NCBI GenBank assembly: GCA_044225175.1
Contig: JBGAJA010000002.1
Location: 146,917-210,916 of the forward strand
Direction of reading: 5' to 3'
From: Candidatus Omnitrophota bacterium
GTDB taxonomy: Bacteria > Omnitrophota > Gorgyraeia > Zapsychrales > Fredricksoniimonadaceae
Length of the DNA: 64,000 nucleotides
The notes under the pieces were generated by a model, which did not search any database, was not told the DNA's origin, and saw only the letters and a list, made by a program, of their open reading frames with translations. The stretch's first letter is position 1. The number at the start of each line of letters is the position of its first letter. The translations under genes and the position numbers were made by a program. Below, piece by piece: positions 7,794-52,500 of the stretch.

Positions 7794-7822
7794 GGGCGTC
7801 TCCCCTCAATTAACATGATTAT

Positions 7823-15891: not shown

Positions 15892-15892
15892 G

Positions 15893-18603
<2,711 letters not shown>

Positions 18604-18621
18604 TACAGAAAGGTTTAAGCA

Positions 18622-23789: not shown

Positions 23790-23818
23790 TTGCATACTGA
23801 CATTTTAGAGGGTATACT
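23790..23818 (+). promoter_or_regulatory. Candidate sigma70 promoter (TTGCAT - 17 nt - TATACT) for the PPIase gene
   Basis: Sequence match 30 nt upstream of a GGGAGG RBS and the ATG at 23850. Confidence 0.35.
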
Positions 23819-23849
23819 TAAATACATATTTTCTTTTAGGGAGGCTTTT

Positions 23850-24810: not shown

Positions 24811-25635
24811 ATGGCTATCGAAAATCAAAAACAAATCATTCTAATTGGAATTGCCGTTGTCGCTGGTATTGGGGCTGCGGTTTTAATTGGCAATTGGAAG
24901 ACCCAAGAAATCAATCAAAAAACACAAGAGTTGCACGATCAATACGAACAACAACAAAAACAAATGGCTGCTGAAATTCAAAAAAGCAGTGAACAGCAAG
25001 TAGCAGCAGTCAGAGAAGAGCTTAACCAAGTCCGTCAACAGCAGCAGGAAGCAATTGAACAGGCCATGAAATCTGCAAAAGAAGCAGAAGCACAAAAGGG
25101 AGCAAGGCTTTCAAACACTCTTTTAACTGCTAAGACTCCTGGTGGTAAAAGAGCTGTAACAGTCATGGTGGATTCATTGAATGCTGTTGGGGGGTTGCTC
25201 AATGCAGGGGATTATGTTGATGTGATTGCTCATCTTGATGTTCCCGATAATGCATCAGACAAGAAAAAGACTTTAACAGCCATGGTTTTTCAAGACCTTC
25301 AGGTGTTGGCCATCAACACTAATTTGGATCAACCTGGAAATTATGATCAACAACAAGGCGCTCCATTTTTAAAAGTAACATTCGCGGTTGATCCACAAGA
25401 AGCAGGCCTTCTAGCTTTTGCCAATAAAAATGGTAAGTTAGAACTAGCGCTTCGTCCTTCCAACGACAACGATAAACAAACAGTCAAAAGCTCCACATGG
25501 AGTACTTTAGCTGAGTATGTTTTACAAAATCAAGGGTCTTCTCTTGATCTTCCAGGGATGGAAGCAGCTTCCGAAAAGACAGAAACTACTAATAAACCGT
25601 ACATACAAATTTTTAGAGGCGGTAAGGAGCTTTAA
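24811..25635 (+). CDS. cpaB: Flp pilus assembly protein CpaB/RcpC-like
   Basis: N-terminal TM helix, coiled/Q-rich linker, and a C-terminal SAF-like domain. It sits directly upstream of the secretin. Confidence 0.5.
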   Translation: MAIENQKQIILIGIAVVAGIGAAVLIGNWKTQEINQKTQELHDQYEQQQKQMAAEIQKSSEQQVAAVREELNQVRQQQQEAIEQAMKSAKEAEAQKGARLSNTLLTAKTPGGKRAVTVMVDSLNAVGGLLNAGDYVDVIAHLDVPDNASDKKKTLTAMVFQDLQVLAINTNLDQPGNYDQQQGAPFLKVTFAVDPQEAGLLAFANKNGKLELALRPSNDNDKQTVKSSTWSTLAEYVLQNQGSSLDLPGMEAASEKTETTNKPYIQIFRGGKEL

Positions 25636-25638
25636 TTC

Positions 25639-27606
25639 ATGAAAAAACATCTAAATAAAAGTGCAAGTATTTTGGTCGCAACAGCTTTTATTCTTTGCCA
25701 AAATCTTCCTTTGTTAGCTCTAGCTCAAGAAGACATGTCTACCAATGCAGTTTCTGAAGATGAGCAAACACCTCAAGTAGAAAAAACAGAGCATATTAAT
25801 TTAGTTATAGGAGATGTTCAGTCCATTGAAACAAGCAATCTCACCAGAGTGGCTGTGACCAGTCCAGAGATTGTAGATATTTCTGATGCAAAATCCGACA
25901 AAGTTTTTGTAGTAGGCAAAAAGGCAGGACAAACAGAAGTTTTTATTTGGGATGATAATGGTAAACGAAGCATAAGTGTAGGCGTTGCCAGTGAAAATCT
26001 AGATGTTTTAACTTCACGTATAGAAGAAGTCATATCTAAGGCCCAGATCAAAGGAATTGTTGTTGAAAAGAATTTGTATGAAGGTAAGGTCATTCTCTCT
26101 GGTGCAGCCACCAAAGAGGATAAAGACATTCTTGATAGGATCATGGATCCCTACAGCGAGAAAATCATTAATCTCGTTAAAAGAGCTGTGAACGATGATT
26201 TAATCCAAATTGATTGCCAAGTGACTGAGTTAAGTCAAACACTAGTCAAACAATTGGGGATTAATTGGAGCAATGCTACAGGGTCTTCCAGTTCAACGTC
26301 TTCCTCAAATAATACCAATACCGTAAATTTACAACCTACGTATCAAGAAACACTTCCCACATCTAATGGTAAACCAGAAGACTGGTTTAAGATTGGAAAC
26401 TTTAATCGTACAACGGCATTGCAGGCCACCGTAGATGCTTTGATTACGGAAGGAAAGGGACGAATTTTATCTAAACCACGTCTAGTTGTTCTAAGTGGAA
26501 AAGAAGCAAGTTTCTTAGTTGGTGGGCAAGTCCCCATCCGCACAACGACATTTAATTCAACCAATAGTTCTTCTGGTGGGGCAGGAACAAGTCAGGAAAA
26601 TGTGACCTACAAGCAATACGGGGTCAACATGACAATCACACCAACCATCCGTGAAGGCAAGGTGGACATTGTTCTTAATGTACAAATCAATGATATTGAT
26701 AAATCGACTTCTGACTCTCAAGGGGACGTTGGTTTTATCTCTCGTGAAGCATCCACCCATTTATTTCTTGATGACAAGCAGACGATTATTTTAGCTGGAT
26801 TTATTAAACATTCCGATGGTCGTACTGTTAACCGAGTGCCTTTTTTAAGCAAAATTCCTGTTGTGGGAATGTTCTTTAGAAATGTGACCAACGGTAATCC
26901 AGATTCAGATACAGAAATGGTTATTTCTCTGACACCAACCATTTTAAAATCAAAGAAGATCGCCACAGAACAGACAGTGTTGCCTAGTAAACGAACAAAG
27001 AGTTTTGTTAAAGAAGTAGACACCAATTATGAAAAAGAAACAATTGATGGCCAACAATTGATTGAACCAAAGGCTGAAGAACCAAAGGCGCAAGAAAAAC
27101 CAGCTGCGGTTATAACTGCTACACCTCCAGTAGAACCTAAACAAAACTTTGGACCGCACAATGTCTCAGTAGAACCTAAAGCTACGGATACAAAGAAAGC
27201 CGAAGTAAGCGCTCCAGTTGCAGATGTTAAACCTATCGAAGAAAAACCTGTACAAATTATCAATCAACCACAGGATCCTTTGACAAGCTATGTCCGTTCC
27301 GTTCAAATGAGAATTTCACAGAAAATCACATATCCTTTTGAAGCTCTCCAAAATAATCAAGAAGGAACTGTGAAGCTTAGACTACGCATTCTTAAAGATG
27401 GATCTTTAGCAGATTGTGATCTTTTAGAGTCTTCCGGGAAAGATATTTTTGACAGGGATGCTTTGAATACCGCAAAAATAGTAGCTCCTTTTCAGGCTTT
27501 TCCAGAGAACTTGCATCAAGAAGATTTGATTTTGACAATTCCTATCGTCTATAATCAGCGAACAGAAGTTACGAATAATACACAAGCAGTCATGGCTTCT
27601 TATTAG
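25639..27606 (+). CDS. cpaC: Tad/Flp secretin (CpaC/RcpA family) with a C-terminal Pro-rich linker and TonB-C-like domain
   Basis: Signal peptide and a pilus-secretin N-domain. Secretin core 'LSKPRLVVLSGKEASFLVGGQVPI', 'VPFLSKIPVVGMFFRN', 'MVISLTPTIL'. The extra C-terminal 'EPKAEEPKAQEKP...' linker is followed by 'YPFEALQNNQEGTVKLRLRILKDGSL...SSG...AL', a TonB_C signature. Confidence 0.8.
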   Translation: MKKHLNKSASILVATAFILCQNLPLLALAQEDMSTNAVSEDEQTPQVEKTEHINLVIGDVQSIETSNLTRVAVTSPEIVDISDAKSDKVFVVGKKAGQTEVFIWDDNGKRSISVGVASENLDVLTSRIEEVISKAQIKGIVVEKNLYEGKVILSGAATKEDKDILDRIMDPYSEKIINLVKRAVNDDLIQIDCQVTELSQTLVKQLGINWSNATGSSSSTSSSNNTNTVNLQPTYQETLPTSNGKPEDWFKIGNFNRTTALQATVDALITEGKGRILSKPRLVVLSGKEASFLVGGQVPIRTTTFNSTNSSSGGAGTSQENVTYKQYGVNMTITPTIREGKVDIVLNVQINDIDKSTSDSQGDVGFISREASTHLFLDDKQTIILAGFIKHSDGRTVNRVPFLSKIPVVGMFFRNVTNGNPDSDTEMVISLTPTILKSKKIATEQTVLPSKRTKSFVKEVDTNYEKETIDGQQLIEPKAEEPKAQEKPAAVITATPPVEPKQNFGPHNVSVEPKATDTKKAEVSAPVADVKPIEEKPVQIINQPQDPLTSYVRSVQMRISQKITYPFEALQNNQEGTVKLRLRILKDGSLADCDLLESSGKDIFDRDALNTAKIVAPFQAFPENLHQEDLILTIPIVYNQRTEVTNNTQAVMASY

Positions 27607-27658
27607 AGAAGAATTGTAAAAGCATAGATATATGCAAAACTAGACTGATGACAAAACT

Positions 27659-27703
27659 AAAAACCGTGATACAATATTTTCTATTGTCCACGGTTTTTAG
27701 TTT
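27659..27703 (+). terminator. Rho-independent terminator after the secretin gene
   Basis: 10-bp stem aaaaaccgtg/cacggttttt with a 20-nt loop, followed by tttttagttttt. Confidence 0.5.
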
Positions 27704-27770
27704 TTGCAGTATCCTCCATTCTTCAGAGTCTCCGAGAAGAAAAGGCAATATCTAACATGAAAGATTAATT

Positions 27771-29930
27771 ATGTTGAGCAAAGTCATTACGGTTTTCAGC
27801 AATAAAGGTGGAGTTGGAAAAACTTTCGTTGCGGTCAACGTTGCAGCTGCTTTAACACTTAAAGGAAAGAAGGTGTTAGTTGTAGACTTAGATCTTCAGG
27901 CGGGTCAAAACATGGCCCGTATGTTTAACTTAACTCCTGCCCACTCTCTCGTCGATATTCTAGAAGCAATTAAAACCGACGACCATGAAATGGTCAAAAA
28001 ATTAGTTACAGCTCATTCTAGCGGACTTGATTTCCTTCCTGCTGTTATGAATCTTCGACAAGCTGGACGCATTACAGCTGACAATATACGGCATTTCTTT
28101 AAAATGGTTAGCTCCTTATATGATTATGTCATTGTGGATGCTGACAAAATGTTTACAGAAACGCTCATCAGTGTTTTAGACAATACAAATTTAATTCTTT
28201 TAGTCACAACTCCAGATATTCTAGCTGTTACCCAAGCGAAGAACAGCATCGATATTTTACAAAGTTTGCACTTTCCTTTGAAGATGTCCAGATTGATTCT
28301 AAATCGTGCGGAGAGTCGAGGGGGAGTTGCATGGCAGGAAGTCCAATCAGCCCTGCCCGCTGAAATATTCTCTTTGATCCCTTCTGATGGTAAAACGGTA
28401 GGATTGGCTCTCAACAGGGGCATTCCTTGCGTGATTGATAGTCCTCGCACAAGAGTTTCCGAAGTATTTTTTGAGATGGCAGACAAGCTCCAAGCTCACG
28501 ACATCTATGTAGCTTCCTCAGATGTGGTGAAAGTCCGAGCCAGCGATACGATTGCTGCTAAAGGAAATGAATTTTGGGAGAAATTTGGAATCGGTCTAGG
28601 AGGAGCTCCACAGGTTAAGGATGCTTTTAGAAAAGAAGAAGACGAAATTATCCGACTCAAAAAAGCCATCCATCACAAACTTGTTGATCGAATGAACTTG
28701 AAAAAGATTTCAACAGAAACGATTACAGACATTCAACAAGCGGCTAATATTCGAAAAGCCGCAGAAAAGATCGTAACAGATTTGCTGGCTGAAACATCTG
28801 GTTCCATCCTCTCATCCCATGAACAGCGTTCACGTTTAGTCCGTGAAATTGTTAATGAAGCCGTTGGGTTGGGTCCTTTAGAAGATTTTCTTGCTGATGG
28901 GGACATAACAGACATCATGGTGAATAATAAAGATGAAATATTCGTCGAGAAAAGCGGAAAAATACTTTTAACAAACAAACACTTTATTTCCAATGAGCAA
29001 GTTCGAGCAACCATCGATAGAATTATTGCTCCTTTAGGAAGACGTATTGATGAATCCACCCCCATGGTGGATGCTCGCCTTCCCGATGGTTCGCGTATCA
29101 ATGCCATTATTCCTCCGTTGTCTTTAAATGGTCCAATGATCACTATCCGTAAATTCTCCCAAGAAAGATATACGATTGATGACATGCTCAATAAATTTAA
29201 CTCCCTCTCTGCCCCCATGGCCGAGTTCTTAAATGTTTGTGTTATTGGGCGAAAGAACATGATTATCTCCGGCGGAACAGGCGCAGGAAAGACAACTCTT
29301 TTAAACATTGTTTCTCAATTCATCCCTGATAACGAACGCATCATTACAATTGAAGATGCTGCAGAGTTACGCTTGTCTAAAAGTCACTGGGCCCGTTTAG
29401 AATCCAGGCCTGTTAACATTGAAGGCAAGGGAAAGATCACGATCAGAGATCTTTTTACCAACACTCTTCGTATGAGACCAGATCGCATTATTATTGGGGA
29501 ATGCCGTGGACCAGAAGTTTTAGACATGTTGCAAGCGATGAATACAGGCCACGACGGGTCTTTAACCACATTGCATGCGAATTCACCAAGAGATGTTCTT
29601 TCGCGTCTTTCTTCGATGGTCTTGTTATCGGGAATCGAATTACCTATTAGAGCCGTTTATGAAATGACAGCTTCCGCCATCAACATTATTGTCCAAATTT
29701 CTAGATTCTCCGACGGCACACGTAAAATAACTGCAATCTCTGAACTCACTGGAAAAATGTTGGATACCATCCCTGAAATGAAAGACATTTTTGTCTTTAA
29801 GCATGCGGGCATTAATGCAGATGGTGTAGTTCTTGGAGAATATGTTCCAACAGGGTATGTCCCTAAATGCTACGATGATTTTATAACTCGCGGGCTTCCT
29901 CTTAACAAAGAGATATTCAATCCTTCATAA
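27771..29930 (+). CDS. Fused TadZ/CpaE-like (MinD/ParA-type) plus TadA/CpaF secretion ATPase, 719 aa
   Basis: N-terminal deviant Walker A 'SNKGGVGKTFVAVN' (MinD-like, no receiver domain). The C-terminal half carries CpaF motifs: Walker A 'GGTGAGKTTLLN', 'IITIEDAAEL', His-box 'MNTGHDGSLTTLHAN'. Confidence 0.8.
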   Translation: MLSKVITVFSNKGGVGKTFVAVNVAAALTLKGKKVLVVDLDLQAGQNMARMFNLTPAHSLVDILEAIKTDDHEMVKKLVTAHSSGLDFLPAVMNLRQAGRITADNIRHFFKMVSSLYDYVIVDADKMFTETLISVLDNTNLILLVTTPDILAVTQAKNSIDILQSLHFPLKMSRLILNRAESRGGVAWQEVQSALPAEIFSLIPSDGKTVGLALNRGIPCVIDSPRTRVSEVFFEMADKLQAHDIYVASSDVVKVRASDTIAAKGNEFWEKFGIGLGGAPQVKDAFRKEEDEIIRLKKAIHHKLVDRMNLKKISTETITDIQQAANIRKAAEKIVTDLLAETSGSILSSHEQRSRLVREIVNEAVGLGPLEDFLADGDITDIMVNNKDEIFVEKSGKILLTNKHFISNEQVRATIDRIIAPLGRRIDESTPMVDARLPDGSRINAIIPPLSLNGPMITIRKFSQERYTIDDMLNKFNSLSAPMAEFLNVCVIGRKNMIISGGTGAGKTTLLNIVSQFIPDNERIITIEDAAELRLSKSHWARLESRPVNIEGKGKITIRDLFTNTLRMRPDRIIIGECRGPEVLDMLQAMNTGHDGSLTTLHANSPRDVLSRLSSMVLLSGIELPIRAVYEMTASAINIIVQISRFSDGTRKITAISELTGKMLDTIPEMKDIFVFKHAGINADGVVLGEYVPTGYVPKCYDDFITRGLPLNKEIFNPS

Positions 29931-29953: not shown

Positions 29954-30304
29954 ATGTCCATTGTCAATCTGACCAAAGAAACAACATTAGCCAGTTATGT
30001 TGAAATTGCTGACAACCCTTTAAAAAGAATGACGGGACTATTAGGAAGAGTTTCGTTAGAGCAGGGGTATGCGCTTGTGATTACCAACTGCAGTAGCATA
30101 CACATGCTTTTTATGAAGTTTTCGATTGATGTTATTTTTGTCGACCAGAACAAAAGAGTGGTTGGTCTTGTTAAGAACATACAACCATTCAAATTCTCTC
30201 CTGTTTTCTGGAAATCTTCTTGCGCCATTGAATTGCCCGCTGGTACAATTGAGTCAACAAAGACGCAAATTGCAGACCAACTATCTGTTTGTACATCATG
30301 GTAA
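29954..30304 (+). CDS. DUF192-family small protein
   Basis: 'MTGLLGR...IHMLFMKFSIDVIFVD...AIELPAGT' matches the DUF192/COG1430 pattern as I recall it. Confidence 0.45.
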   Translation: MSIVNLTKETTLASYVEIADNPLKRMTGLLGRVSLEQGYALVITNCSSIHMLFMKFSIDVIFVDQNKRVVGLVKNIQPFKFSPVFWKSSCAIELPAGTIESTKTQIADQLSVCTSW

Positions 30305-31943: not shown

Positions 31944-32099
31944 ATGATTCGCCACAGAAACACACACGGACAAAATATTATCGAATATGCGATCATTGTA
32001 GCTTTAGTGACGGCCGCACTGGCTGCCATGAGTACTTATGTGTTTCGTTCCGTACAAGCAACTCAAAAGGCCGTTGAAGGGGCAGCTGCTAATCAATAA
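31944..32099 (+). CDS. flp: Flp-family pilin (51 aa). Not in the ORF track because it is shorter than 60 aa.
   Basis: Hand translation: MIRHRNTHG|QNIIEYAIIVALVTAALAAMSTYVFRSVQATQKAVEGAAANQ*. AAGGAG RBS 7 nt upstream. Flp motif G/xxxxEY plus a hydrophobic helix. Confidence 0.7.
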   Translation: MIRHRNTHGQNIIEYAIIVALVTAALAAMSTYVFRSVQATQKAVEGAAANQ

Positions 32100-32117
32100 A
32101 ACTAAGAGAGGGTGTCT

Positions 32118-32390
32118 ATGGTAAGAACAATCAAATACCACACAATCAAAGACAATAAGGGGCAAAGTACAATTGAATACATTGTTCTTGTGACCGCTGT
32201 TATTGCCATCATCATTTTGTTTATGACTGGTCAAAACAGCATGTTTGGAAATAAAATAACAAATACGTACTGCACAACGGCAGAAGGAATGTCTGAAAGA
32301 GCATCAGCATTGTCAGAGACACATAACTCAGAAGCTGGAAATCAAGCGAATTCCATTGTGACAGTGAATGTATTACAAAACCTTTTTTAA
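32118..32390 (+). CDS. Flp/TadE-family prepilin
   Basis: ...KG|QSTIEYIVLVTAVIAIIILF. Confidence 0.6.
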   Translation: MVRTIKYHTIKDNKGQSTIEYIVLVTAVIAIIILFMTGQNSMFGNKITNTYCTTAEGMSERASALSETHNSEAGNQANSIVTVNVLQNLF

Positions 32391-32424
32391 TTAATGACCA
32401 AGAAATTTCCTAACAGGAGGATTT

Positions 32425-32778
32425 ATGTTAAGACAATTAGCTAATAAAAAAGCCCAAAACACCGCCGAATACGCGCTTTTGATTGCCCTTGTTGTAGCCG
32501 GTGTTATTGCCATGCAAACATATGCCCAACGCGCTTTGCAAGCCCGCGTGAGAGACGCTTCCTTATACATGAGTAATACAACAAAGGAAATAGGAACAAC
32601 TAATCAATACGAGCCTTATTACACGCAAAGTAATTATGCTGTCTCCCGAGAATCAGAAAGCAATAAACAGCTAGCTGAAGGAACAGTAGCTCAAGGACAG
32701 GCAACCAATAGAACCCGTGCAAAGGGTGGTGAACAAAAATCCACATATGACAATGCAGTACTTCAAAGTGGTATTTAG
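32425..32778 (+). CDS. Flp/TadE-family prepilin (paralog of 33462..33866)
   Basis: ...KA|QNTAEYALLIALVVAGVIAM; AGGAGG RBS; shares 'QYEPYYxQS' with paralog 6. Confidence 0.6.
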   Translation: MLRQLANKKAQNTAEYALLIALVVAGVIAMQTYAQRALQARVRDASLYMSNTTKEIGTTNQYEPYYTQSNYAVSRESESNKQLAEGTVAQGQATNRTRAKGGEQKSTYDNAVLQSGI

Positions 32779-32830
32779 GCAAACAATTGTAACTGTACAC
32801 ATAGTTTAAGACATATTTTAAGGAGGATGT

Positions 32831-33169
32831 ATGATTACATATCTTAATGGTAGAAAAGGGCAAAGCACCCTCGAATATGCGGTATTAATCATTATTATTA
32901 TCGCAGCCTTAATTGCCATCCAAACGTATATCAAGCGTGGTGTCCAGGGGCGCCTTAAATCCGCTTCAGACGATATTGGCGATCAATTTTCCCCAGGTAA
33001 TACCAATGTCATATGGGCAGAAAAAACCAGAACCAATGAACAACAGACTTTTGGGATTCAAGGGCAGGGAGTCCAATCAACTACATTGTTGTCCAATGAA
33101 GTAACTAACACAATCATGAAGTCGTCCGTTGCTAAATCAGACCAAGAATATTGGGGCACAGATAAATAA
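32831..33169 (+). CDS. Flp/TadE-family prepilin (paralog of 34201..34539)
   Basis: ...KG|QSTLEYAVLIIIIIAALIAI; AAGGAGG RBS; shares 'KRGVQGRLKxxxDDIGDQ' with paralog 8. Confidence 0.6.
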   Translation: MITYLNGRKGQSTLEYAVLIIIIIAALIAIQTYIKRGVQGRLKSASDDIGDQFSPGNTNVIWAEKTRTNEQQTFGIQGQGVQSTTLLSNEVTNTIMKSSVAKSDQEYWGTDK

Positions 33170-33259
33170 GGAGAAGTTTTTTAAAAGTAATGGAAGCACA
33201 AGAGGGTTCGGAAATCTCATTTCGAACCCTCTACACTTTAACTAATATTAAGGATGATT

Positions 33260-33451
33260 ATGAAAAAAAAGGGCCAAAGTACTGTGGAATACATTTTGCT
33301 CGTGACAGCAGTTGTAGCCGTCATTATTGTCATTGTTAACGGAGACAAGTCGCCTTTTCGCAAAAAGTTAAACACGACGATCGACACCATCACTAATGGA
33401 ATGGAAGATAAGGCGTTCACGCTTACCAATATGATGGGTAATCAACAGTAG
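33260..33451 (+). CDS. Flp-family pilin (about 63 aa)
   Basis: MKKKG|QSTVEYILLVTAVVAVIIVIV. Confidence 0.6.
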   Translation: MKKKGQSTVEYILLVTAVVAVIIVIVNGDKSPFRKKLNTTIDTITNGMEDKAFTLTNMMGNQQ

Positions 33452-33461
33452 GTGATCAGAC

Positions 33462-33866
33462 ATGTTTAAAAGCCGCCAACAAGGAACGGTTTCTATCAGT
33501 GAATATATTTTGGTGTTCATACTTGTGGTTGCTGTGGTCGCTGCTATGGCCGTGTACATCCAAAGATCCCTTCAAGGTCGGCTGCGAGATGGCAGGCATT
33601 ATGCCATGACTAAATTTAGAGAAGAATGTGTGCGTACTAATTGCGTAGGTACAGGAGAAGTAGGAGAACAGTATGAACCATACTATCTCCAATCCAAGGC
33701 AAACATTGCTACAGACAGCCTTAAACACAAAGGACTGATGACATCCAAATTAGGAAGCTCGGGAATATTTGTCGCCAGAACTAGTTCTAATAATCAAAGC
33801 AATGCCCAGGCTACACAGCTTCCTCCAATGAATGCCATCAATGATCAAGTCCTGGGGAAAAAATAA
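33462..33866 (+). CDS. Flp/TadE-family prepilin
   Basis: ...QQG|TVSISEYILVFILVVAVVAAM. Confidence 0.55.
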   Translation: MFKSRQQGTVSISEYILVFILVVAVVAAMAVYIQRSLQGRLRDGRHYAMTKFREECVRTNCVGTGEVGEQYEPYYLQSKANIATDSLKHKGLMTSKLGSSGIFVARTSSNNQSNAQATQLPPMNAINDQVLGKK

Positions 33867-34183
33867 TGAAGAACCAGGGACAAACCATACTGGAATATGT
33901 CATGCTCTTGGGGTTAGTCACAATTGTTTTGGTCTATATGAGTGTCGACATGAAACGAGCCGTGCAAAGTATGGTGAAAGTAACGGCCGACCAACTGGGC
34001 AATCAAGTCAATGCCGACCAAGACTTTAATGGTCAAATCAAACAAGGCATTATGACCAAATCTATGACCAATACATGGCAAGGACAGCAGCAGCTTCGCA
34101 GCGAAAGAGAAGGAATCATTAATCAGCAAGTAGGGGATTTCACAGATACGAAAACTAATACGACAACGAAAATAGATAATTAG
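33866..34183 (+). CDS. Flp/TadE-family prepilin
   Basis: MKNQG|QTILEYVMLLGLVTIVLVYM; TAATG overlap with the previous gene. Confidence 0.6.
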   Translation: MKNQGQTILEYVMLLGLVTIVLVYMSVDMKRAVQSMVKVTADQLGNQVNADQDFNGQIKQGIMTKSMTNTWQGQQQLRSEREGIINQQVGDFTDTKTNTTTKIDN

Positions 34184-34200
34184 CATCCAGAAAGACATTC

Positions 34201-34539
34201 ATGCTTATGAAAAGATTATCCATTCAAAGAGGCCAAAGTTTAATCGAATACTCTATCCTGATTATTATTGTTATCGCTGTGTTTTTATCCATGAATAGCT
34301 ATTTTAAAAGAGGTATTCAAGGCCGCTGGAAAGCATCGATTGATGATTTAGGCGAACAATATGACCCGCGCACAACTAATTCTCTCATCAACTATGTCCT
34401 TAATAGCAGTTCGAATACTTCAATAGATGTGGTTCCAACGAGCAATGGAGATTTTTGGACCAACCGTGTGGACACTTCTTCTTCTTCCGAATCTAAGGGT
34501 GGACAAACGGTTGTAGGAGCCTTGCTCAACAAACTTTGA
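34201..34539 (+). CDS. Flp/TadE-family prepilin
   Basis: ...RG|QSLIEYSILIIIVIAVFLSM. Confidence 0.6.
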   Translation: MLMKRLSIQRGQSLIEYSILIIIVIAVFLSMNSYFKRGIQGRWKASIDDLGEQYDPRTTNSLINYVLNSSSNTSIDVVPTSNGDFWTNRVDTSSSSESKGGQTVVGALLNKL

Positions 34540-36171: not shown

Positions 36172-36173
36172 AA

Positions 36174-36425: not shown

Positions 36426-36426
36426 T

Positions 36427-40295: not shown

Positions 40296-41153
40296 ATGAT
40301 TACACTTATTTTATTTTTGATTTTTATTTCTTTTGCAGCATTGACGTATAGCCTTCTTCCCATCTTGACCAGAGGCGCAACAGACATCAATCAGCGTCAG
40401 GCCCAGCAGGTCTTAAATAATGCAGATCTTTATTTGCAAGATGCAGATTTGCAAAAGGCCCAACGCATTACGCTCGTCATGCCCGCTGTTCTGGCCATTT
40501 GTGGTTTCTTGTTTTTTCCAGAAAATCTTCGCGTTCCAGGGGCTATTATCGGAGTGATCGTTGGAATCATTATCCCGCGTATTTATGTTTCTAGCCTTAT
40601 CAGCAAAAGAAAAGAAAAGTTTAATGATCAGCTGGTTGATGCTCTGATGATTATGTCGAGTTCTTTTCGAGGGGGGCTTTCTTTGGTGCAGGCGATTGAG
40701 GCGGTCGTTGATGAAATGCCAGATCCTGTTAAGCGAGAGTTCGGAATTGTTTTGGGAGAAAATAAAATGGGCGTTTCTTTGGAAGAAAGCTTGACGCGTC
40801 TACAGGTTCGCATGCCATCGGTTGCCCTTCAACAAATGATTACAGCCATCTTGCTTGCTCGTGAAACAGGCGGTAATCTGCCTGTGATTTTCTCAAGGAT
40901 TGTCAGCACCATTCGAGAACGAAAGAAAATTGAACAAAATCTGAAGACATTAACCATTCAAGGAAAGATTCAAGCCGTTGTCATGACCCTCCTTCCTCTG
41001 TTCTTTGTGATGGGTGTTAGTGCGACGAATCCAAAGTTTTTTGATGTCATGTTTCGTCTCCCCGAAGGCAGGCAGATGTTAATGGTTTGTGTTGTTCTAT
41101 GGGTTGTTGGGGCTATATTAATTTGGAGAATCAGCAAATTTAAGGAAGTTTAA
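40296..41153 (+). CDS. tadB: Tad/Flp pilus inner-membrane platform protein TadB (T2SS-F family)
   Basis: 285 aa, polytopic, with a GspF-like cytoplasmic domain. It sits in the Tad locus. Confidence 0.75.
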   Translation: MITLILFLIFISFAALTYSLLPILTRGATDINQRQAQQVLNNADLYLQDADLQKAQRITLVMPAVLAICGFLFFPENLRVPGAIIGVIVGIIIPRIYVSSLISKRKEKFNDQLVDALMIMSSSFRGGLSLVQAIEAVVDEMPDPVKREFGIVLGENKMGVSLEESLTRLQVRMPSVALQQMITAILLARETGGNLPVIFSRIVSTIRERKKIEQNLKTLTIQGKIQAVVMTLLPLFFVMGVSATNPKFFDVMFRLPEGRQMLMVCVVLWVVGAILIWRISKFKEV

Positions 41154-41156
41154 TTT

Positions 41157-42062
41157 ATGTTAACCATGGCCATGTTGTTAGTTTTTCTAGCTATTTTTGC
41201 GGCGATCTTAGCTTTCATTCCTTTTGATAGTCGTCCCACATTAAAGTTGGACATGACATTGACGCCAAGCCCCTTTGGACAAGAAATACAGACCAAAAAG
41301 AAAAGCCCTCTTTCCGGTCTAGTAAGTCTTTTAAGAAAGGCGGCTTTTTTTAATAAGCCTTTTACCAAGTCGGATTTAGGACAAAGAATATTCAGAGATT
41401 TGTCCTTAAGTCAGACACCCATATCGACGGAAGAATTCCTTTTGATAAAACAAATTTTGGTTGTCGTCCTTATTTTGATTTCTATCAAGATCAATCCAGA
41501 CCCCTCCTTCTTAATGTTTTCTGTTTTAATGGCGGTTGCAGGTGGGTATATTCTTCCCGAATTCTGGCTACGTATGCGAGTTAAAAAAATTAAAGAGTCC
41601 ATTTTGCGTGATTTGCCAGATACGGTTGATCTTTTAGGTCTTTGCGTGAACGCTGGTCTTGATTTTATGATGGCCCTTCGTTATGTGGTGGAAAAGTCAC
41701 AACCCTCAGTCATCATCGAAGAGCTTAGGATCATGATGCAGGAAATCAATGTAGGTAAGCCTCGCAGGGATGCTCTGCGGGATTTATCTAGGAAATATGA
41801 AATGCCGGATTTGGCGACCTTCTCTCGTACCTTGATCCAAGCAGATCGCATGGGTACCTCGGTGTCAGAGGCCCTTAATATTCTCTCCGAAGATATGCGC
41901 GAAACCCGCTATCGCAGAGGCGAAGCCATGGCGCTCAAAGCCCCTCTTAAAATGCTTATTCCCCTGTTATTGTGCATTTTCCCAGTTGTGGCCCTTTTAG
42001 TCGCCGGCCCCATCTTCCTAGACTTCATGCACAACAACCCTCTACAGAACTTAGCCAAATAA
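41157..42062 (+). CDS. tadC: Tad/Flp pilus inner-membrane platform protein TadC (T2SS-F family)
   Basis: 301 aa, a paralog of TadB, in the locus position expected for tadC. Confidence 0.75.
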   Translation: MLTMAMLLVFLAIFAAILAFIPFDSRPTLKLDMTLTPSPFGQEIQTKKKSPLSGLVSLLRKAAFFNKPFTKSDLGQRIFRDLSLSQTPISTEEFLLIKQILVVVLILISIKINPDPSFLMFSVLMAVAGGYILPEFWLRMRVKKIKESILRDLPDTVDLLGLCVNAGLDFMMALRYVVEKSQPSVIIEELRIMMQEINVGKPRRDALRDLSRKYEMPDLATFSRTLIQADRMGTSVSEALNILSEDMRETRYRRGEAMALKAPLKMLIPLLLCIFPVVALLVAGPIFLDFMHNNPLQNLAK

Positions 42063-43539: not shown

Positions 43540-46500
43540 ATGGATAAAAACGAAGAATTCGAAAATCCAATTTCCTCTAACGAGGGCATCAAGTCTGATG
43601 GATCAGAGTCTGTATCTGCAGATAATATAGATATAGGCCACTCATCAGAATCTTCTTATTTGAAATTTCCAGAAAACCTTTCCCCCGTCGCTGCTAGTAC
43701 GAACCCCGAAGAAAGTTTTAATTCTATCGACGACAAAGACTTTAGAAATGGATCCGCCTTTGGCGGAGACCCAAGTCTCATTCAAATTCCACGCGCTGAT
43801 CAAAATCCATTTGTAAGTAACTTTAAACAATGGATCAAAGCGGTTGCTATTTTTGTATTAATAGTATTTATACCTGATCAAATAAGCTGGGCTTTTGGGT
43901 ATAATCCACAAGTCCTTTATAAAGATTTGCCTATTACAAGCGCCCCTATGTCATCGTCGGTGATGAATATGGCGGCCAATGACGCCGGCAAGATTTTACC
44001 TCACCAACAAATTTCCGGTTCCGTTGAATATTTGCTTAACCAAATCAAAGACAAAGAAAATCTTCGTGTGCAGTTGAACGTAGAGAATCCTAAAGATGCA
44101 AACAAATCCGCAGCTCATCAACTTGAAGTGGACACAAAGATTAAATTCGACAAACAAACCATTCAAGAAATTACAAAATGGTTGTCTCAAGAGAATCTAA
44201 ACATTCTTAATTGCGGTGTTTATTCCTTGCAAAAATTGCTTGAGCACAGAGGCATCAAACGCTCGCTGGAAGAAATTGCTGTTTTAACAATCGCCACCGA
44301 TTTAATGACCAACATTATTAAAATCGGTGAACCAAAACTCAAGACCACATTATTCTCAATGGCTAAAGTTGGAGATGCCTTAGGTTTAAATTACAAAGCC
44401 ATCAAGCTAGAGGCAAAAGACGAATTAACATTACCCACGCCTTTCATTGCCTCCATCAAAGGCGAACACTTTGTGACTGTCAAAAAAGTGACAGACACAC
44501 AAGTTTTTGTAGAGGACTTAGGCCAATCCAAAACATTAGATAGAAGAATTTTTGAAGACAGCCTGACTGGTTTTGCTTATGCCAATGTTGGCGAACATTT
44601 TAAATCTGAACTTTACGAAGTAGTCCCTGAAGCTTTGCAAGCATTTGTCTGGGGAGATAAATGGCGTGACCGCACCGGAGACTTGCCTGGATTGACCAAC
44701 TGGAACCAAGTCATTATTACTGGGGTCATTCAAGTGGCCATGTGCTTTATTCCCTTAGCTGGAGAATATGTGGGTGCATCGGCCGGAATCACAGCCACAA
44801 CAACCATGGAAGTCACCAATAGCGCAGGTGAATTAATTGCAGCCGGTGCTATCGCCATGGCTGCCAGCCAATTAGCCGGAAACATTGCAACAGTTTGTAC
44901 GATGAAAGGTGCCTGTAATGCCACGACGGGATTCTTATTAAGTACGGCGCTTTCTGTTGGTTTGACCATGGGAGCAAGCTCTGCTGCAGGTATAGCTCAC
45001 GGAGGATTTGCCAATAATATTTTAGGAAAAGAAGCTAATCCAGTTTCAAAGTTTGCCGTAGATTTTGCTTTTAATTTTTCTATGGGACTTGTCGCTGGTT
45101 ATGCCAGCCTTGAAGCAACCCGAGCTGTTCAAGAAGCCATTTGTAAAGATTCGAAAAAATGCTCAGGGACTCAAGCCATTCTCTCCCAAGCACTCGGCAC
45201 TATTGCTGGATCAGTTGCTTCCATTGCAGCAACCACAGTCACTGCCTATGGGCTATCTCAAATGCCTGGCAAATTTGGTGAAGCCGTTTCAGACACTTAT
45301 GGATTCAGAGAAAAGAATGCTGCCAAGGCCGCTCGCGAAAATGTGGTGAATAATCAACCTGAAATTAAGCAGAGTGGGGATGCTATCATTAAAGCAGCTA
45401 CCATAGATAATCTACCCGCTGACCAAGTCCTGCAAATAGATCCTCATTTTACAGACACACCTCAAAACAGGGCGATTGTTCAAGACTTGCAAAGTCCAAC
45501 TCCTGGAACTGTTAATGAAGCCATAGGTAAAGTCAGAGAAAGCCTTACTCAAGACTATAGAAATGAAGGTGTTGGCACATGGGCAGCGGATGATGCCATT
45601 AAAAATAATCCTGATTTGGCCCCCCAACGCGCAGAAATGATTAGAGACCTGAAATCCGGTGTGGTTTTAGGAAGTGATGGAAACTATAGTTTTAATAATC
45701 CAACTTTAGAACCAGCTGTTCTTCATGCCATGGACAATGCCAATGCCTGGCACAATACTTCTTTTGGCCAAGTGATGTCCGACATGGCCATCAGCCAATT
45801 GCCTGCGATCGCCGGACAGTTAACAGGAATGATTGCCCAAATCGTCGCCTACAAAGCAGGAGGCGTTGATCCTGATAGTGGAATGTCCCAAGGATTAAAT
45901 CAATTCTTTAGTTCAGCAGGAAGCTTGGCGGCAGGTTACGGCATGCAGCAATCAGGCATGGTCCCAAGAAGCACATCCGAAAATATTTCAGCAGCGATCA
46001 AAACAGGTCTTATCCGATCTGCCTTTGCCTTAGGTTTAGGAATTGTGGAAGATAAGATTATTGAGAAACCAGCCAAAGGGTCTTCCGCCCGCGCTCAATG
46101 GCGTTATGAAGAAAAATTGGCCCAGCTTCGCGCTTTCAATTTTGTGGCCTCCAGCTTTTTAACAGGGGCCATCATCGCAACCACCGATGAACAAAATACC
46201 GGTATCGAAGGCGTATCCGTAGACTCTATGAAGAACGCCATTGCCCAGCGTGCCCGAGCCAAAGCCTCTCAAGAAGCTGAAAACAATCCCTACATGATTA
46301 ATTATGCAACCCAAGAAACAGATACTCCACAAATGGATACGTCTAAGGGCCCATTATATGGAAAGATGATGGAAGATTTTAAAACTAAAGCAGGAGAAGA
46401 TGCTTACCAAGCAACCATGGACAGTATGAATGTTTCCTGGGGACGTCGAGCTTTGTTTTCAAGCCTTCATATAATGGGCAACACGGACAACAGCTTTGTG

Positions 46501-49500
46501 GCTAACTTCATGGGAATTCCTGAATCACGAAACTATTACACCAATGGCAGCTGGGGTCCAACCCAAGGAGCCTATGGAGTCACACCTGGACCCAACAATT
46601 TTGTGGCCTACAGTAATACACTACAGCAGTTAAGCGGATGGACAGTTAACATGGCCCTCCAAGCTGATCAAATGTGGAAAGACATGAAGGAGACCAATAA
46701 TTTGATCACAGGAATGCCAACGAGTGCAACTAATGTCGGCGGCCTAGTTGTGGCTGACTATATTGGCGCTCCTCAGAGAATGACCCAGGAACGCCTCCAT
46801 GATCAATGGGTGTTGCAATTATTCAGTTCCAAAATGTTAAATCCCAATCGATTGAATTACAGCTATATCAACTCGACTCTTCAAAATGCCAACATTGATA
46901 ATTATGGTCACTATTTGCCAGGGGCCATTGTAAGCGCCTTAACCAAACCAAAAGTTTATGATGTCACCAAGAATGAAGACGGAAGCTTCTCTTATATAAA
47001 CGAGGACAATCAGAAAGTTACTTTAGATAAACAAGAGGAACAAGATATTTCTTACAAACCTGTTTGGGATGATAAGGGCAATCAAACCACCGCTCCAATT
47101 TATGTCGATGATAAAGCCCAAATTGCTGCCATCAAATGGGGATTGCCTGTGGTTCGTATGGCAACGGTATTAGGTGACAATGGCGGATTTAATTTAGTGC
47201 AAGGCGATGTGACAACCATGAAAAGCGGCGTGACAGGTAAGGATGAAACTGTGTATGTGGGTCGAGGATTTAGAGGAGTTGAATTAGATGTGATCAATCA
47301 TCGCGGCAATGGATTCATTGAAAGAACTTGGGTCAATCCTAATGATGAGAGAAGAGAACATATCCGCATAGGCGGCAAAGCTTACGTCGATCCAGCAGAA
47401 TTAGAAAGCCAATTAGAAACGTTACGTAACGAAGGAAAGACGCTGGAGATTCAAGACCGCACAGGTAATCTTTTAACAATTACGGCTAAGACTGAGGAAG
47501 AACTCAAAAGTAAAATCGACAGCTTAGATGATGACACCGTCTCAAATTTTGCCACAAGCTATGGTCCATCAGTCAGCAATGAGGCTGTATCGCAAGAAGG
47601 CAGAGACAAGCTCAAACAAAAATTGAGTCAAGATTTCCAAGCTCAAAACAGCGGTCCTCAGAAATGGGGCTATGAATATGACGTCTCTGGACAAGCCATA
47701 GGTTTTAAAGATACAGACGGAGAAGCCATTGCGCTCAATCAAGTGACCCAGCGATTGGTTGAGAAACATAACCATCAAATGAATGAAGCAACCCAGGGAC
47801 TGGTACCTATTGTTAATGGGGCCATATCTGCTCCATTAGTCAATGCCGATGGACGTTCCTTAGCTGCAGAAAATGGAGGTAATAAAGCTGCTCAATTATT
47901 GGCTGGAAGAAATTTCTGGGTGGAAGGTACAACAGAAAGCCAAGAAATGCAAAAGTTCATCAAAACCTCCGGAGGCATTCACAATATTATTGGGGGAGAT
48001 GGACGAGGGTTTAATTTCAATTATAGAGGTACGTACGATAACTCCTCTTTAAACTTGCAGCTTCCAACAACTACCCATGAAATGAAGGATGGCAAAGCCC
48101 AGCCTGTATTCGTCAACCAAGCCATTTTTGGAAATAAAAATTTCAGCAGCATGTACATGACGGGGGCTATGTCGGATGGAACATTCTGGTCTACCAAGGA
48201 CGGCTCAGCCATTTCTTCGGCATTTTTAAGTTTCGATTCCCTAAGCGGAAGGATTGCAGGGTATAACGAGAGTATTGTAAGTTCGAAAGAAGGTCTTCAA
48301 TACAATGATTTCCAAAACGCTTATCAACAACAATTGGCCCCAGATCAAAAATTTGATTCTGCTCAAATGGCCGCAGCTGCTGGTCCTTTAGCTGCCCAAC
48401 GATATTTAGCTGCCCATGCGTTTGCGGCTCGCTTAGGGACTTTGAATGCTTCTCCAGCCAGTTCGATGGTTGCTTTCCAAGCCTTTGGACGTGATGACCA
48501 AAGGGTCACAGACACGCCGCTGTATGAGGACCAATTTGTCTACAGTCCTCAAGCTAAGCAAAATGCAGAAGAACCCGATACGTATGAAGGTTCAGCTATA
48601 CCTACATCTCACGTAGATAGCAAAAAGCTGAATATTCAAGGCCAAGGATTAGTGTATTCCTCGGCCAATCAAGCCAACATGTTTGCCATCAATAAAAGCG
48701 TTAATCAGAACAGTCGATTCACTTCTGGTTTGATGACCACATCGCCTTTGAATGTCCTCGATCAAGGAACACTAACAGCAACCGTTAATCATGGAGAAGT
48801 CGTTTTCAAATCATTTGCCGAAGATGCATCCGGTAACGTCACCGATTTCGCTGGGGCTCCATCTATTCAAGGAGATACCGCTACAAAATCCAAGGCATTC
48901 GCAAACCAATTACAAAGTCCAAGCCCGTTAATGTTGTCAGATGTACAAGCGGATAATGAGGCATGGAAAACTCAATTCCCAGCATTAGATATTTTCTCAA
49001 CTACCAATAGCAATTCTCCCCAATTGAAATCCATGATTGAGGAAGGTATCAAAAACACTAACCCAGAGAACTCTACTTTAACGGTTAATTTTAATAATGG
49101 ACGTTTGGCCAATATGAATTTCCAAGGATATTTCGGGACCCAAGCAGGATCATCCTCCAGTGGAATATTATATGAATCCCAGGAATCTTCTGGAGGCAGC
49201 AAGGATGAAGGTTGGAAAGGGGCCACAATCGCCCCATTTGTCTTTCCTTCTGAAGCTGCTTTGCAAAGCAATCCAACCTTACGTAAATTAGCGTTGAATG
49301 ACAACTCCCAGGTGGCCGCTACATTTAATTCTCAATCAGGCGGTTTACAGGTCAAGTTTGGTAAGGGAAGTATTCTATATTCTGACTCTACAGGTGGTTT
49401 GAATCCATTTAATCCAACATTAGATTATAAGGGCCAAGCGTATTCTCAAAATGAATACAACAGTGCTATTTATGTTGGCCAAAATTCCGATGGAAGCCCA

Positions 49501-52500
49501 ACGCACATGAGATTCGGGTGGGTGGCAGATAGAGATCAGAATGGAAACATTAAAAAAGATGCTCGAGGAAATACAGTTTTTTTAAGTCCTACATCTACGC
49601 TGTTAGTTGATAAAACTACATTTACCAATAAAGAAATATTTCTTAATAATACTTCTCGATTGGATTTAGAAACATTCACATCTGAAGAGTCCCACGTCTT
49701 TAAAGTCAATGATGCATCCAAGCCATTTGTCTGGAACAGCGGGAACTGGGAATTACCCGCTGATAGCAAGTCGCTATCTGTGGGTGTCAATTATGTCAAA
49801 AGTCAGTTAGGCAAAGATTTAACTGATCAGAAGAAAGTTGCGGACGCCAATGCCATGATGGCTTCCTCGCAATTAGGACTAACGCCAATTAGGGGTGTGA
49901 CTGAAGATGAACAAAAGAAATTCTATCAGGCTGTTTACAGCGATATCAAAGCTGGTCCAGGAGGTGTGTTCCTTTATCAACCTACGCCAAGTGAAACACA
50001 CAATCAGCTTTTAAGTAATATCTTTCTAAGTCCTGTTTTAAATACCAGCTTAAGCAATCCTTTATCTCAAATTGGAGTTGGTCAAGTCATCAATAATATG
50101 GAAGGAAGTGTATCTAATACAGGAGATTTTGCCCAAAGTGGTTCTCATTCCATTTTGCATGATTTAAGAAGCAAATTCGATCAAAATCAATCCCCGCAGC
50201 CAACAGCTAATGCTGATCAGGCGCCCGCAAGTGTTCGTCTTCCTGCTGGAGACAAAGCCACAACAACCATTAATCCGCTTGTTCAAGGCTATGTTAATCG
50301 TGTGGACACGACAGCTGGAGGCGTGTGGTATGGAGAAAGTTCAAGGTCTTTACATAACAATGTGACAAGTGAAAACAGTCTTATACTAGAGAATGAACCT
50401 GAATATGCCATCTTAGGACAGGCCCAATTTAATGTGGGAGATCAAACACATTCATTTAGCGCAACAACATATTTTAGACCCAATAGTACAAGGATTGTCG
50501 GTCAATTAGGTCAAAACGGATACACATTAAGAGGTGTAGGCAATGCAGAATCAGCGATGGATATGTTTGACGGTGGATATTTAGCTGTTTCAGATAATGG
50601 GCCACATCCAGGTTTAGGGTTGGGATATGCTCGAACCATTGGCATTGATCGCGTGACGAAAAATGGCCAGGAAATTTCCAATGGTTTATGGACAGCTAAT
50701 GTGGGCTCTGTTCGAAAAGCAATTGGTTCTATTCTAGGATTTCCAGGACGCAGCGATGGTTCATTTAGTTTAGAAGACGGAAAGATGGTTGTTTCCTCAG
50801 ATACCGCAACCAACAATCTTCTAGAAGGCAAAGCTTCGTTCCAAGGATTTGCCCGTGCCGAAAATGGTGTGGAAGATGTAGCCATGAATTTCAACAGTCT
50901 TCAATATACGCCTAATAATGAAATCATGTTTGTAGCAACTGCTAAAGATAATGCCCAAGAAGGTAAATTCCCTATTTCTGGAGAAGCTTTTATAGGGGGA
51001 GCAAATCCTTCTAATGGCGCAGCTGGAGCAGCTGCAGAAAAAACAGATCCTGGTATTGCTAATATCGCCCGCCTTAGAAATCCACAAGGAAACAAAGATG
51101 TAGTCTTGGCCCTCGTCGGGGGTACAGGTGGAAATGCCAATGAACAATTAGGTGTTCTTTACTCGACCAATGGATTTACATTTAATCCTAATGCGGAAGG
51201 TTCCAAGTATTCATTTGTTAATGGAACCAACAACAGCAATCGAGTTTATTTTGGAGACCACAATTCCGCTTGGGGGCTTGGTTTTGGTATTGAAGGTGGA
51301 CGTAAAGTAGGATTAGAGGGTAGCGAACCAACCTATTTCAATAACACCCGCCAAATCAATGAAGCTGGAACAATCACCGACGAGGAACAAGGTTTCACAT
51401 ATGTCTTTGAAGGGGACGCCAAGAAGGGTTCATGGAATTTAGCTAAAGAAGACAGCTTGTTCCCAGACACGATGAATAAAGGTTTGACTCCACAAAGACA
51501 GGCCGTAATTTATAGTGGAAAAGCTAAGGGTATTGGGATCACTCAGAATTATGTTGATTTCATGATGAACCAAGAAGGAACGCTTCAGTATCTACCTTTA
51601 AATGCTAACCATGCTAAAATTCCAAGAACAGTCGTGGCAGACACACCCATTGATTCTTCTTTAGATTTTGAAACTTCCCAAGGCATTGCAGCCCGCGCTA
51701 GCGCGGATACGGGGATTGGTCTGACTGCGTTCAATGCACCAGCAGAGTTATCGACTCAAAACACTGCGGAATTTACAAGTCCAAATTCATTTGGAGATAG
51801 TACACCTAAAACAAACAACACGTCTTTAATTGAAACAGCCCTAAGTTCCAAACCAGTTTCCCAAACAAATGATCTGGGTATTGATTTACTTTTACCTCGA
51901 CAAGCATCTTCTGCCATATCCAACATGGATTCAAGCAGATCTCCTCAACAAATTTTGACCGCTCCTGAAGACCCTGCTTTTGAATCAGTCACAGGAAGTG
52001 GACTTACACGCCAGGTTGGCACAACAGCTAATGGTACTCCTATCTATGAAACAGAAATATCTTCGGATGACAGTTTGGTTGCAAGGGCCCCAGAAAGTGT
52101 AAGAGACGTAAATCAAATCACATTGTCCTATGCCCCTATGTATCAGGGTTTTAACCATCTTTTTGAAGGTCAATTCCAAGCTGAAAAATTAGGCAGCAAA
52201 AACCAATTCATTTCCGGTGTCCAAACGGATGCTCAAGGCAATTTAACAGGTGGTTATATCGTGGCTGCTGAAAACCATGAGTATAACAATCCAGCCAGCT
52301 TGACCAATCGTCCTTTGGCAGGATATCAAGTGTGGTTAGGCCAAGACGGATTTGCCAAACGCGGCATGAGAAGCGGCTGGGTGAACATGACAGCCACAGG
52401 TACAGCTAACCTAGCATTAAAAACAGGCGGTGTTGTTCAGGCAGAAGGATTGTTAAGCGGCATTAATTTTATGGCGGTTGAGGGTGTCGGTCAGCCTAAG

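Follow-up and report, generated by a model that had tools for sequence, protein, structure and literature searches.

A TadZ-type ATPase domain fused to the TadA/CpaF motor in a Tad-type cluster of Candidatus Omnitrophota

We analyzed a 64,000-nt stretch of DNA (the window) from a Candidatus Omnitrophota assembly (GCA_044225175.1, contig JBGAJA010000002.1, positions 146,917 to 210,916 of the forward strand), to which all coordinates below refer. A gene at 27771..29930, here called tadZA, encodes a TadZ-type ATPase domain, a linker, and a TadA/CpaF-type motor ATPase in one uninterrupted reading frame. We consider it very probable that its product is the motor ATPase of a conserved Omnitrophota cluster for a Tad-type (type IVc) pilus or secretion machine, and that it has the TadZA architecture, in which the atypical receiver domain (ARD) of TadZ has been lost and a flexible linker leads to a complete CpaF/TadA. 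The gene and the parts of its product are the following.

27771..29930, + strand: tadZA, TadZ-type ATPase domain, linker and TadA/CpaF motor ATPase in a single 719-aa open reading frame (ORF)
27777..28505, + strand: TadZ-type domain of the ParA/MinD fold, residues 3 to 245, receiver-like domain absent (Pfam, match to PDB 3EA0, TadZ profile, model confidence)
27795..27827, + strand: deviant Walker A, FSNKGGVGKTF, residues 9 to 19, with signature Lys12 and P-loop Lys17 (conservation in relatives)
28506..28643, + strand: inter-domain linker, residues 246 to 291, about 45 residues, mostly of low confidence (predicted local distance difference test score, pLDDT, below 50 at residues 259 to 264 and 272 to 290)
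28560..28595, + strand: conserved linker motif KGNEFWEKFGIG, residues 264 to 275 (conservation; mini-helix at 266 to 271)
28644..28865, + strand: CpaF-type N-terminal three-helix bundle, residues 292 to 365 (helices 292 to 308, 321 to 342 and 350 to 365; CpaF alignment from residue 66)
28866..29927, + strand: N-terminal domain (NTD) and C-terminal domain (CTD) of CpaF/TadA, residues 366 to 719, with Walker A GGTGAGKTT (residues 501 to 509), Asp box, Walker B and His box (CpaF 388 bits, Foldseek)

The initial annotation had proposed a domain scan and a comparison of orthologs. It had claimed a single polypeptide of 719 residues with a deviant Walker A of the MinD/ParA type at its extreme N terminus, no receiver-like domain in front of it, and a C-terminal half of the CpaF/TadA kind in which Walker A, Asp box and His box are present. 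All of these structural claims were borne out. The ORF starts with ATG and comprises 719 codons and a stop, with zero internal stops. Since the stop-free frame opens at 27756, at most five extra codons are possible upstream, and a receiver-like domain in front of the P-loop is therefore impossible. Moreover, the 164-nt gap between the secretin gene and tadZA holds no ORF. Pfam placed AAA_31/ParA/CbiA at residues 3 to 245 and T2SSE at residues 364 to 642 (4.1e-59). The two motifs quoted in that annotation, FSNKGGVGKTFVAVNVAAAL for the N-terminal half and GGTGAGKTTLLN for the C-terminal half, lie at residues 9 to 28 and 501 to 512, respectively.

A search of 5.8 billion proteins provided homologues for comparison. 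Both domains were present in 118 of the 120 matches listed. These proteins measured 714 to 729 aa, save for a few shorter and probably partial entries, shared 65 to 84% identity, and came from independent NCBI, JGI, ENA and Logan assemblies; the named ones belong to Candidatus Omnitrophota. Across 115 full-length relatives the gap fraction over the junction (residues 241 to 320) was at most 0.04, and F268, W269, E289, D291, K297, H301 and L304 were invariant. The other two reading frames over the junction contain 6 and 8 stops. A second comparison covered GTDB species representatives, with 80 retrieved loci checked at the ORF level. Single-ORF fusions were found in 13 of them (Omnitrophota, six Bdellovibrionota/Oligoflexia, one Elusimicrobiales, one WOR-3 and several unclassified), in independently assembled genomes that include one complete Bdellovibrio chromosome. 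In the other 67 loci, tadA was not fused to a TadZ-type domain. About 50 of these 67 had a separate tadZ of about 390 to 450 aa with a receiver-like N terminus (140 to 180 residues before the ATPase domain begins), and this gene ended 4 to 40 nt before tadA. With such close spacing a single error, a missed stop or a frameshift near the middle, could in principle merge two adjacent genes into an apparent fusion. However, homologues assembled independently at different centers keep both domains at nearly the same length, the junction is almost free of indels, the alternative frames carry stops, and the 13 fusion genomes agree. On this comparative evidence an artefact at the tadZA junction is excluded for practical purposes, and we give such a merger a negligible chance. 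A larger figure, fusions in about 60 loci over more than 15 phyla, was suggested by tblastn matches at query residues 4 to 717; it was rejected when the ORF check left 13, the rest being a separate tadZ followed by tadA.

We also looked for an internal start from which TadA could be made on its own. Between residues 230 and 370, none of the in-frame starts had a Shine-Dalgarno-like motif, a weak test given that the true start also has no clear one, and the lone Met in this interval is not conserved. The 1:1 coupling of the two ATPases put forward in the initial annotation follows from their covalent linkage.

To classify the N-terminal domain, we took 50 free-standing genes located immediately 5' of tadA in the fetched genomes and made a profile of the ATPase domains that they encode. 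Its members were retrieved by similarity to the query and are somewhat biased toward it, while their genomic context is a criterion free of that bias. The window domain scored 233 bits, and the members themselves scored 208 to 311. The structure PDB 3EA0 reached 194 bits, the fused Bdellovibrio N-domain 163, Aquifex MinD 124, and the window's own chromosomal Soj 85. Because the score of 233 bits stands against 124 for MinD and 85 for Soj, the domain is, by profile, specifically TadZ-type rather than a generic MinD or ParA. It lies in frame upstream of TadA, in the same order as the separate genes. Its Walker A is at least 95% conserved across the 115 relatives; in this domain K12, G13 to G16, F19, D39 and D123 are invariant, and conservation is at least 90% for K17 and T18.

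We weighed the alternative that a generic MinD/ParA-type ATPase, such as a membrane switch of the MinD/FlhG kind, was recruited independently, which would make "TadZ-TadA" a misnomer. The canonical deviant Walker A with its P-loop lysine and the absence of a receiver-like domain would fit this explanation. The best NCBIfam models for the N-terminal half are archaeal and bacterial MinD, many family members are labelled "septum site-determining protein MinD" by JGI, and the tree of TadZ domains has no deep support. However, the NCBIfam scores of 93.7 bits for minD_arch and 87.2 for minD_bact fall far under the respective cut-offs of 201.75 and 212.9, so that the MinD thresholds are not passed, and the TadZ profile clearly prefers its own class. 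In addition, the closest solved match in both sequence and structure was 3EA0 (74 bits; Foldseek template modelling score 0.90, root mean square deviation 2.0 Å), ahead of all MinD, FlhG, FleN and Soj structures. The nearest free-standing relatives show 36 to 39% identity and the same KGGVGK[ST] loop; they are encoded in Firmicutes and Actinobacteria, immediately 5' of tadA. We therefore regard independent recruitment as quite improbable and refer to the domain as TadZ-type. Assignment as the chromosomal ParA was likewise rejected, as a canonical Soj/ParB pair is encoded separately at 6873-8620.

The C-terminal half (about residues 292 to 719) is, by alignment, a clear CpaF/TadA orthologue. 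It matched Caulobacter CpaF (9e24) with 388 bits over CpaF residues 66 to 482, which comprise the helix bundle, NTD and CTD, and was 43 to 44% identical to the solved Caulobacter protein. Other secretion ATPases scored far lower (archaeal GspE-like 129 bits, FlaI 125, VirB11 111, PilT/PilB below 40). A Foldseek search with the AlphaFold2 (AF2) model returned CpaF structures as its top four matches (8rjf, E 3.8e-41). The Asp box (ERIITIEDAAEL), Walker B (DRIIIGECRG) and His box (NTGHDGSLTTLHAN) match Caulobacter CpaF residue for residue, and these three motifs and the Walker A of this half are invariant in 55 relatives. The conservation of the nucleotide-binding motifs in both halves shows that they are under strong purifying selection.

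The two domains are joined by a linker of conserved length (gap fraction at most 0.04). In the AF2 model, built with 55 sequences (mean pLDDT 76), residues 1 to 245 are confident (pLDDT about 85 to 95), and a low-pLDDT linker separates the two confident domains; the predicted template modelling score (pTM) is just 0.44, so the relative arrangement of the domains is not predicted. The linker is probably flexible. Within it, the motif KGNEFWEKFGIG is strongly conserved among relatives, with F268 and W269 invariant and K271, F272 and G273 kept in at least 90%. It occupies the position of the C-terminal tail of free-standing TadZ, and similar motifs are present in WOR-3 and other fused linkers. 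Many free-standing TadZ proteins (loci L006-L080) carry a short basic-aromatic tail 15 to 30 residues past the ATPase domain, for example RTGFFGR, KKGFSLWK or GWLDRLWKRG, which resembles the membrane-targeting helix of MinD/FlhG. By a crude rule, 21 of 50 such tails fit the MinD-like pattern, compared to 10% of control windows. The Omnitrophota motif is acidic and just modestly amphipathic (hydrophobic moment 0.34), and because of its acidity we offer a MinD-like membrane-targeting role for KGNEFWEKFGIG as a hypothesis and a lead only.

The fused architecture was common in the sequence collections searched. When 1.84 billion representatives were searched exhaustively, the fused, ARD-less form appeared in 63 of the 149 clusters listed at 50% identity. 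Judging from these clusters, it is widespread and not peculiar to the window or to Bdellovibrio, and it was always without the receiver-like domain. Four entries, P0089 (1156 aa), P0100 (1155 aa), P0121 (1605 aa) and P0124 (1356 aa), matched the TadA half two to four times or had long extensions, which suggests tandem multi-TadA polypeptides. The C-domain of the window protein was most similar (55 to 61% identity) to that of a group of TadA proteins encoded in Myxococcota, Acidithiobacillus and other genomes (L040-L048, L054, L059, L062, L063, L066, L070). Their N-terminal extensions, 150 to 310 residues long, do not resemble TadZ, and no tadZ-like gene adjoins theirs; this group is a different N-terminal elaboration of the same motor. 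Labels for the fusion family are inconsistent across annotation pipelines and include "septum site-determining protein MinD", "pilus assembly protein CpaF", "TadA" and "ATPase, T2SS/T4P/T4SS family" (for example P0029, P0039, P0042, P0011, P0016, P0131 and P0145).

We computed neighbor-joining (NJ) trees with 100 bootstraps for the TadA domains (n = 229) and for the TadZ domains. In the TadA tree, 83 of 91 fused proteins fell into one 99-leaf group that holds the Omnitrophota-type and Bdellovibrio clades. The Omnitrophota-type clade had a bootstrap of 93, and the node uniting the group had a bootstrap of 0. In the TadZ tree the Omnitrophota N-domains were nearer to free-standing Firmicutes/Actinobacteria TadZ than to the Bdellovibrio N-domains (bootstrap 0, distances saturated), in line with identities of 36 to 39% to the former compared to 24 to 30% to the latter. 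Because the deep nodes are unsupported and the TadZ distances saturated, the trees do not decide between a single and multiple origins of the fusion.

tadZA belongs to a Tad-type cluster that is complete and lies some 10 kb downstream of dnaA-dnaN-gyrB-gyrA; its motor half is encoded together with a TadB/TadC platform, RcpC, a secretin and Flp-type prepilins. Other features of the window are listed here.

6873-8620, - strand: canonical chromosomal Soj/ParB pair (parA/parB)
23790-24785: peptidyl-prolyl isomerase (PPIase; Rotamase_2)
24811..25635, + strand: rcpC/cpaB (Pfam RcpC 5.5e-25; syntenic in loci L001-L003)
25639..27606, + strand: RcpA/CpaC-like secretin with C-terminal TonB_C (Pfam Secretin 7.8e-39, T2SS-T3SS_pil_N, TonB_C 2.1e-16)
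29954..30304, + strand: DUF192 gene directly 3' of tadZA (Pfam DUF192 3e-18)
30327-31730: 467-aa protein without Pfam match
31944..34539, + strand: array of about 8 Flp/TadE-like prepilin paralogues with a GQ[ST]xxEY motif (translations)
34546-36171: 541-aa protein without Pfam match
36141-36425 and 39785-40243, + strand: further prepilin-like ORFs
36403-39807: 1134-aa protein without Pfam match
40296..41153, + strand: tadB, T2SSF platform protein (Pfam T2SSF 1.2e-17)
41157..42062, + strand: tadC, T2SSF platform protein (Pfam T2SSF 1.5e-17)
42252-42935: IS200-like Y1 transposase gene, before the giant ORF
43540..64000, + strand: giant ORF of at least 6,820 aa that runs past the end of the window

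We saw no free-standing tadZ in the 64-kb window. The order PPIase-cpaB-secretin-tadZA(-DUF192) recurs in other Omnitrophota loci, and the cluster is a conserved Omnitrophota locus that is already in the literature. Seymour et al. (2023) describe an Omnitrophota Tad complex that is expressed in V. archaeovorus. In West-Roberts et al. (2023) it is called a "type II secretion-like locus"; rcpC and a Rotamase_2 PPIase are part of it, giant genes follow downstream, and its ATPase gene is listed as a gspE homologue. Term searches of the two papers found no mention of the fusion. A 2026 preprint reports secretion or pilus genes flanking 13 of 14 giants, and the IS200-preceded giant ORF directly downstream of the Tad cluster agrees with this published association between giant genes and secretion or pilus loci.

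Several further observations were made in this region. The secretin combines T2SS-T3SS_pil_N (residues 51 to 111) and Secretin (residues 267 to 437) with an extra TonB_C (residues 562 to 639), a fusion that is atypical of RcpA/CpaC. Between the secretin gene and tadZA (27607-27770, + strand), a long AU-rich hairpin at about 27653-27705 has a minimum free energy of -39.1 kcal/mol (z = -4.4; 0 of 200 shuffles equally stable). A U-rich stretch follows it, and a promoter-like ATGACA-16-TACAAT overlaps it at 27648-27675; the hairpin may be a terminator, an attenuator or a regulatory element. DUF192 (COG1430) genes also stand beside Tad ATPase genes elsewhere (L001:12174-12518, L003:10645-10980, L031:8904-9233), and tblastn found DUF192 in 29 of the 67 loci without fusion, so this looks like a frequent Tad-associated component that has gone unrecognized. 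The prepilin repertoire is unusually large, with about 10 tandem small ORFs in which GQ(S/T)xxEY is followed by a hydrophobic helix, interspersed with the Pfam-less 467-, 541- and 1134-aa proteins. The replication-origin gene set (dnaA, dnaN, gyrB and gyrA; 13299-21078, + strand) adjoins the Tad cluster, and parA/parB and yidC are on its other side. Since the Tad locus of V. archaeovorus is likewise reported at 12 to 30 kb on its chromosome (Seymour et al. 2023), an origin-proximal position of the Omnitrophota Tad cluster is suggested to be conserved. Finally, parA has a type IV pilin-like gene as its neighbor (8634-9119, - strand; N_methyl motif), and on this basis parts of another type IV filament system, not of the Tad kind, are encoded in the region as well.

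The neighborhood raises another explanation of what the machine does: it may be a secretion apparatus, a pseudopilus akin to type II secretion, that exports or deploys the giant protein, with the TadZ domain serving assembly at the secretion site and not the polar placement of a pilus. The cluster stands directly upstream of the giant ORF of at least 6,820 aa, West-Roberts et al. (2023) tie their type-II-secretion-like locus to the deployment of giant proteins, and secretion or pilus genes stand beside most of the giants in the 2026 preprint. The many prepilin paralogues and the large unannotated proteins would also suit such a role. However, the components that can be identified are all of the Tad type (RcpC, RcpA-like secretin, CpaF, split TadB/TadC and Flp-like prepilins) and not Gsp, and co-location with a giant gene is no evidence of secretion. 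We consider this possible but unlikely. It bears on what the machine delivers and does not conflict with the identification of TadZA.

A number of observations weigh against our reading of the protein as the TadZA-type motor of a Tad-type cluster. The N-terminal ARD of textbook TadZ, thought to mediate TadZ interactions, is missing. The Walker A reads KGGVGKT and not K/RGGxGxS/T, the consensus quoted for TadZ (bioRxiv 10.64898/2026.07.08.737194); the P-loop lysine (KGGxGK[ST]) is also kept in free-standing, tadA-adjacent TadZ of Firmicutes, Actinobacteria and Chloroflexota. The best NCBIfam model for the motor half, TIGR03819 (TadA-family ATPase), scored 324.5 bits over residues 324 to 657, under its trusted cut-off of 373.15; by name, this model covers a subfamily associated with conjugal transfer. 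No prepilin peptidase is visible in the 64-kb window. To these points are added the bias of the TadZ profile and the low pTM of the model mentioned above. Lastly, most Omnitrophota are reported as ultra-small cells (Seymour et al. 2023), in which "polar" targeting may not be applicable; any polar targeting in Omnitrophota is extrapolated from other organisms.

Under the TadZA reading, we propose the following model. By analogy with known motors, the CpaF half would hexamerize and drive the polymerization, perhaps also the depolymerization, of Flp pilins on the TadB/TadC platform, and each protomer of the hexamer would carry its own TadZ domain. Because Lys12, Lys17, Asp39 and Asp123 are intact, ATP binding by this domain is probable, as is pairing into ATP-sandwich dimers through the signature lysine, either within a hexamer (up to three dimers) or from one hexamer to another. 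Together with the linker the domain may be the site for a positional cue or for membrane contact. The motor would then bring its own means of recruitment to the assembly site, at a fixed 1:1 ratio and with no need for a separate, receiver-bearing TadZ hub, so that the receiver-like domain would be dispensable.

A more far-reaching proposal combines these elements. According to it, ARD-less TadZ::TadA defines a Tad subtype that is ancient and widespread (Omnitrophota, Bdellovibrionota, Elusimicrobiota, WOR-3 and many unnamed lineages) and may be enriched among bacteria that are predators or depend on a host. The ParA-like domain would work in cis on the motor: neighboring TadZ domains would pair in an ATP-dependent manner and, with a MinD-like tail retained in the linker (in Omnitrophota, FWxKFG), would hold the CpaF hexamer clamped on the membrane or platform and gate its activity. 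In Omnitrophota the motor would drive the apparatus that deploys the adjacent giants. We regard this combination as doubtful.

Our results indicate that, in the Omnitrophota cluster found ahead of giant genes, the fused form is standard for the Tad ATPase, and that this form is common in metagenomic diversity. They provide a broad comparative base for the work in Bdellovibrio, with conserved motifs, a variable linker and the loss of the receiver-like domain. They also expose an annotation problem: "MinD", "CpaF" and "TadA" are used inconsistently, and system finders that rely on components may report TadZ as missing. The understanding of Tad systems is not fundamentally changed.

Comparison with known systems places the protein as follows. 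An ARD is part of canonical TadZ. The TadZ/CpaE and TadA/CpaF proteins of Aggregatibacter actinomycetemcomitans and Caulobacter crescentus comprise the same two modules, with tadZ immediately before tadA. They differ in that TadZ is a separate protein of about 390 to 450 aa with an N-terminal ARD, its ATPase domain beginning at about residue 140 to 180. In Proteobacteria and Acidobacteria, the lysine is often absent from the TadZ P-loop (KGGxG[TA]T), whereas the P-loop of the window protein is canonical and the domain sits covalently on the motor. The "ParA family ATPase" of Chlorobium tepidum (3EA0), which we take to be TadZ-like partly on its 194-bit profile score, similarly has no receiver-like domain in its 245 aa. 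However, it is free-standing, and its P-loop (KGGDGGS) has no P-loop lysine. MinD and FlhG (FleN) share the fold and the deviant Walker A with its signature lysine, and ATP-dependent dimerization would be expected; they place a membrane-targeting helix where the window protein has its short conserved motif after the ATPase domain. Conversely, the window domain scores far under the MinD cut-offs, is fused to a secretion ATPase, and has no minC, minE or flagellar context.

The closest known system is the TadZA fusion of Bdellovibrio bacteriovorus, encoded in its tad locus 1 and essential (bioRxiv 10.64898/2026.07.08.737194). The same preprint, which refers to an earlier source for the fusion as such, reports that binding of the polarity hub RomR requires the TadZ region and linker and that these also suffice for it, and that the protein is dynamic and biased to the invasive pole. 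It also states that TadZ localizes to the assembly site and recruits Tad components in A. actinomycetemcomitans, Caulobacter and Bdellovibrio. Both fusions are single polypeptides made of an ARD-less TadZ region, a flexible linker and TadA, and both are encoded next to a secretin and rcpC in the Tad locus of a predatory or host-dependent bacterium. TadZA of Bdellovibrio sp. HCB288 is collinear with the window protein (39% identity over 698 residues, E 8e-174). The differences lie in the N-domains, which are just 24 to 30% identical, in the linker, whose sequence is not common to the two and where the Omnitrophota FWxKFG motif is missing in Bdellovibrio, and in gene order. Bdellovibrio has tadZA-tadB with tadC elsewhere, whereas in the window tadZA is followed by DUF192, about 10 kb of pilins and proteins of unknown type, and then tadB-tadC. 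The literature searched mentions a fused motor for Bdellovibrio only. The statement in the initial annotation that these are two separate proteins in known Tad systems thus holds for the classical models, but not as a claim of novelty, given the Bdellovibrio protein and the large share of fused clusters among those listed. The window protein is the Omnitrophota representative of the already described TadZA fusion ATPase, and it is ordinary for its lineage.

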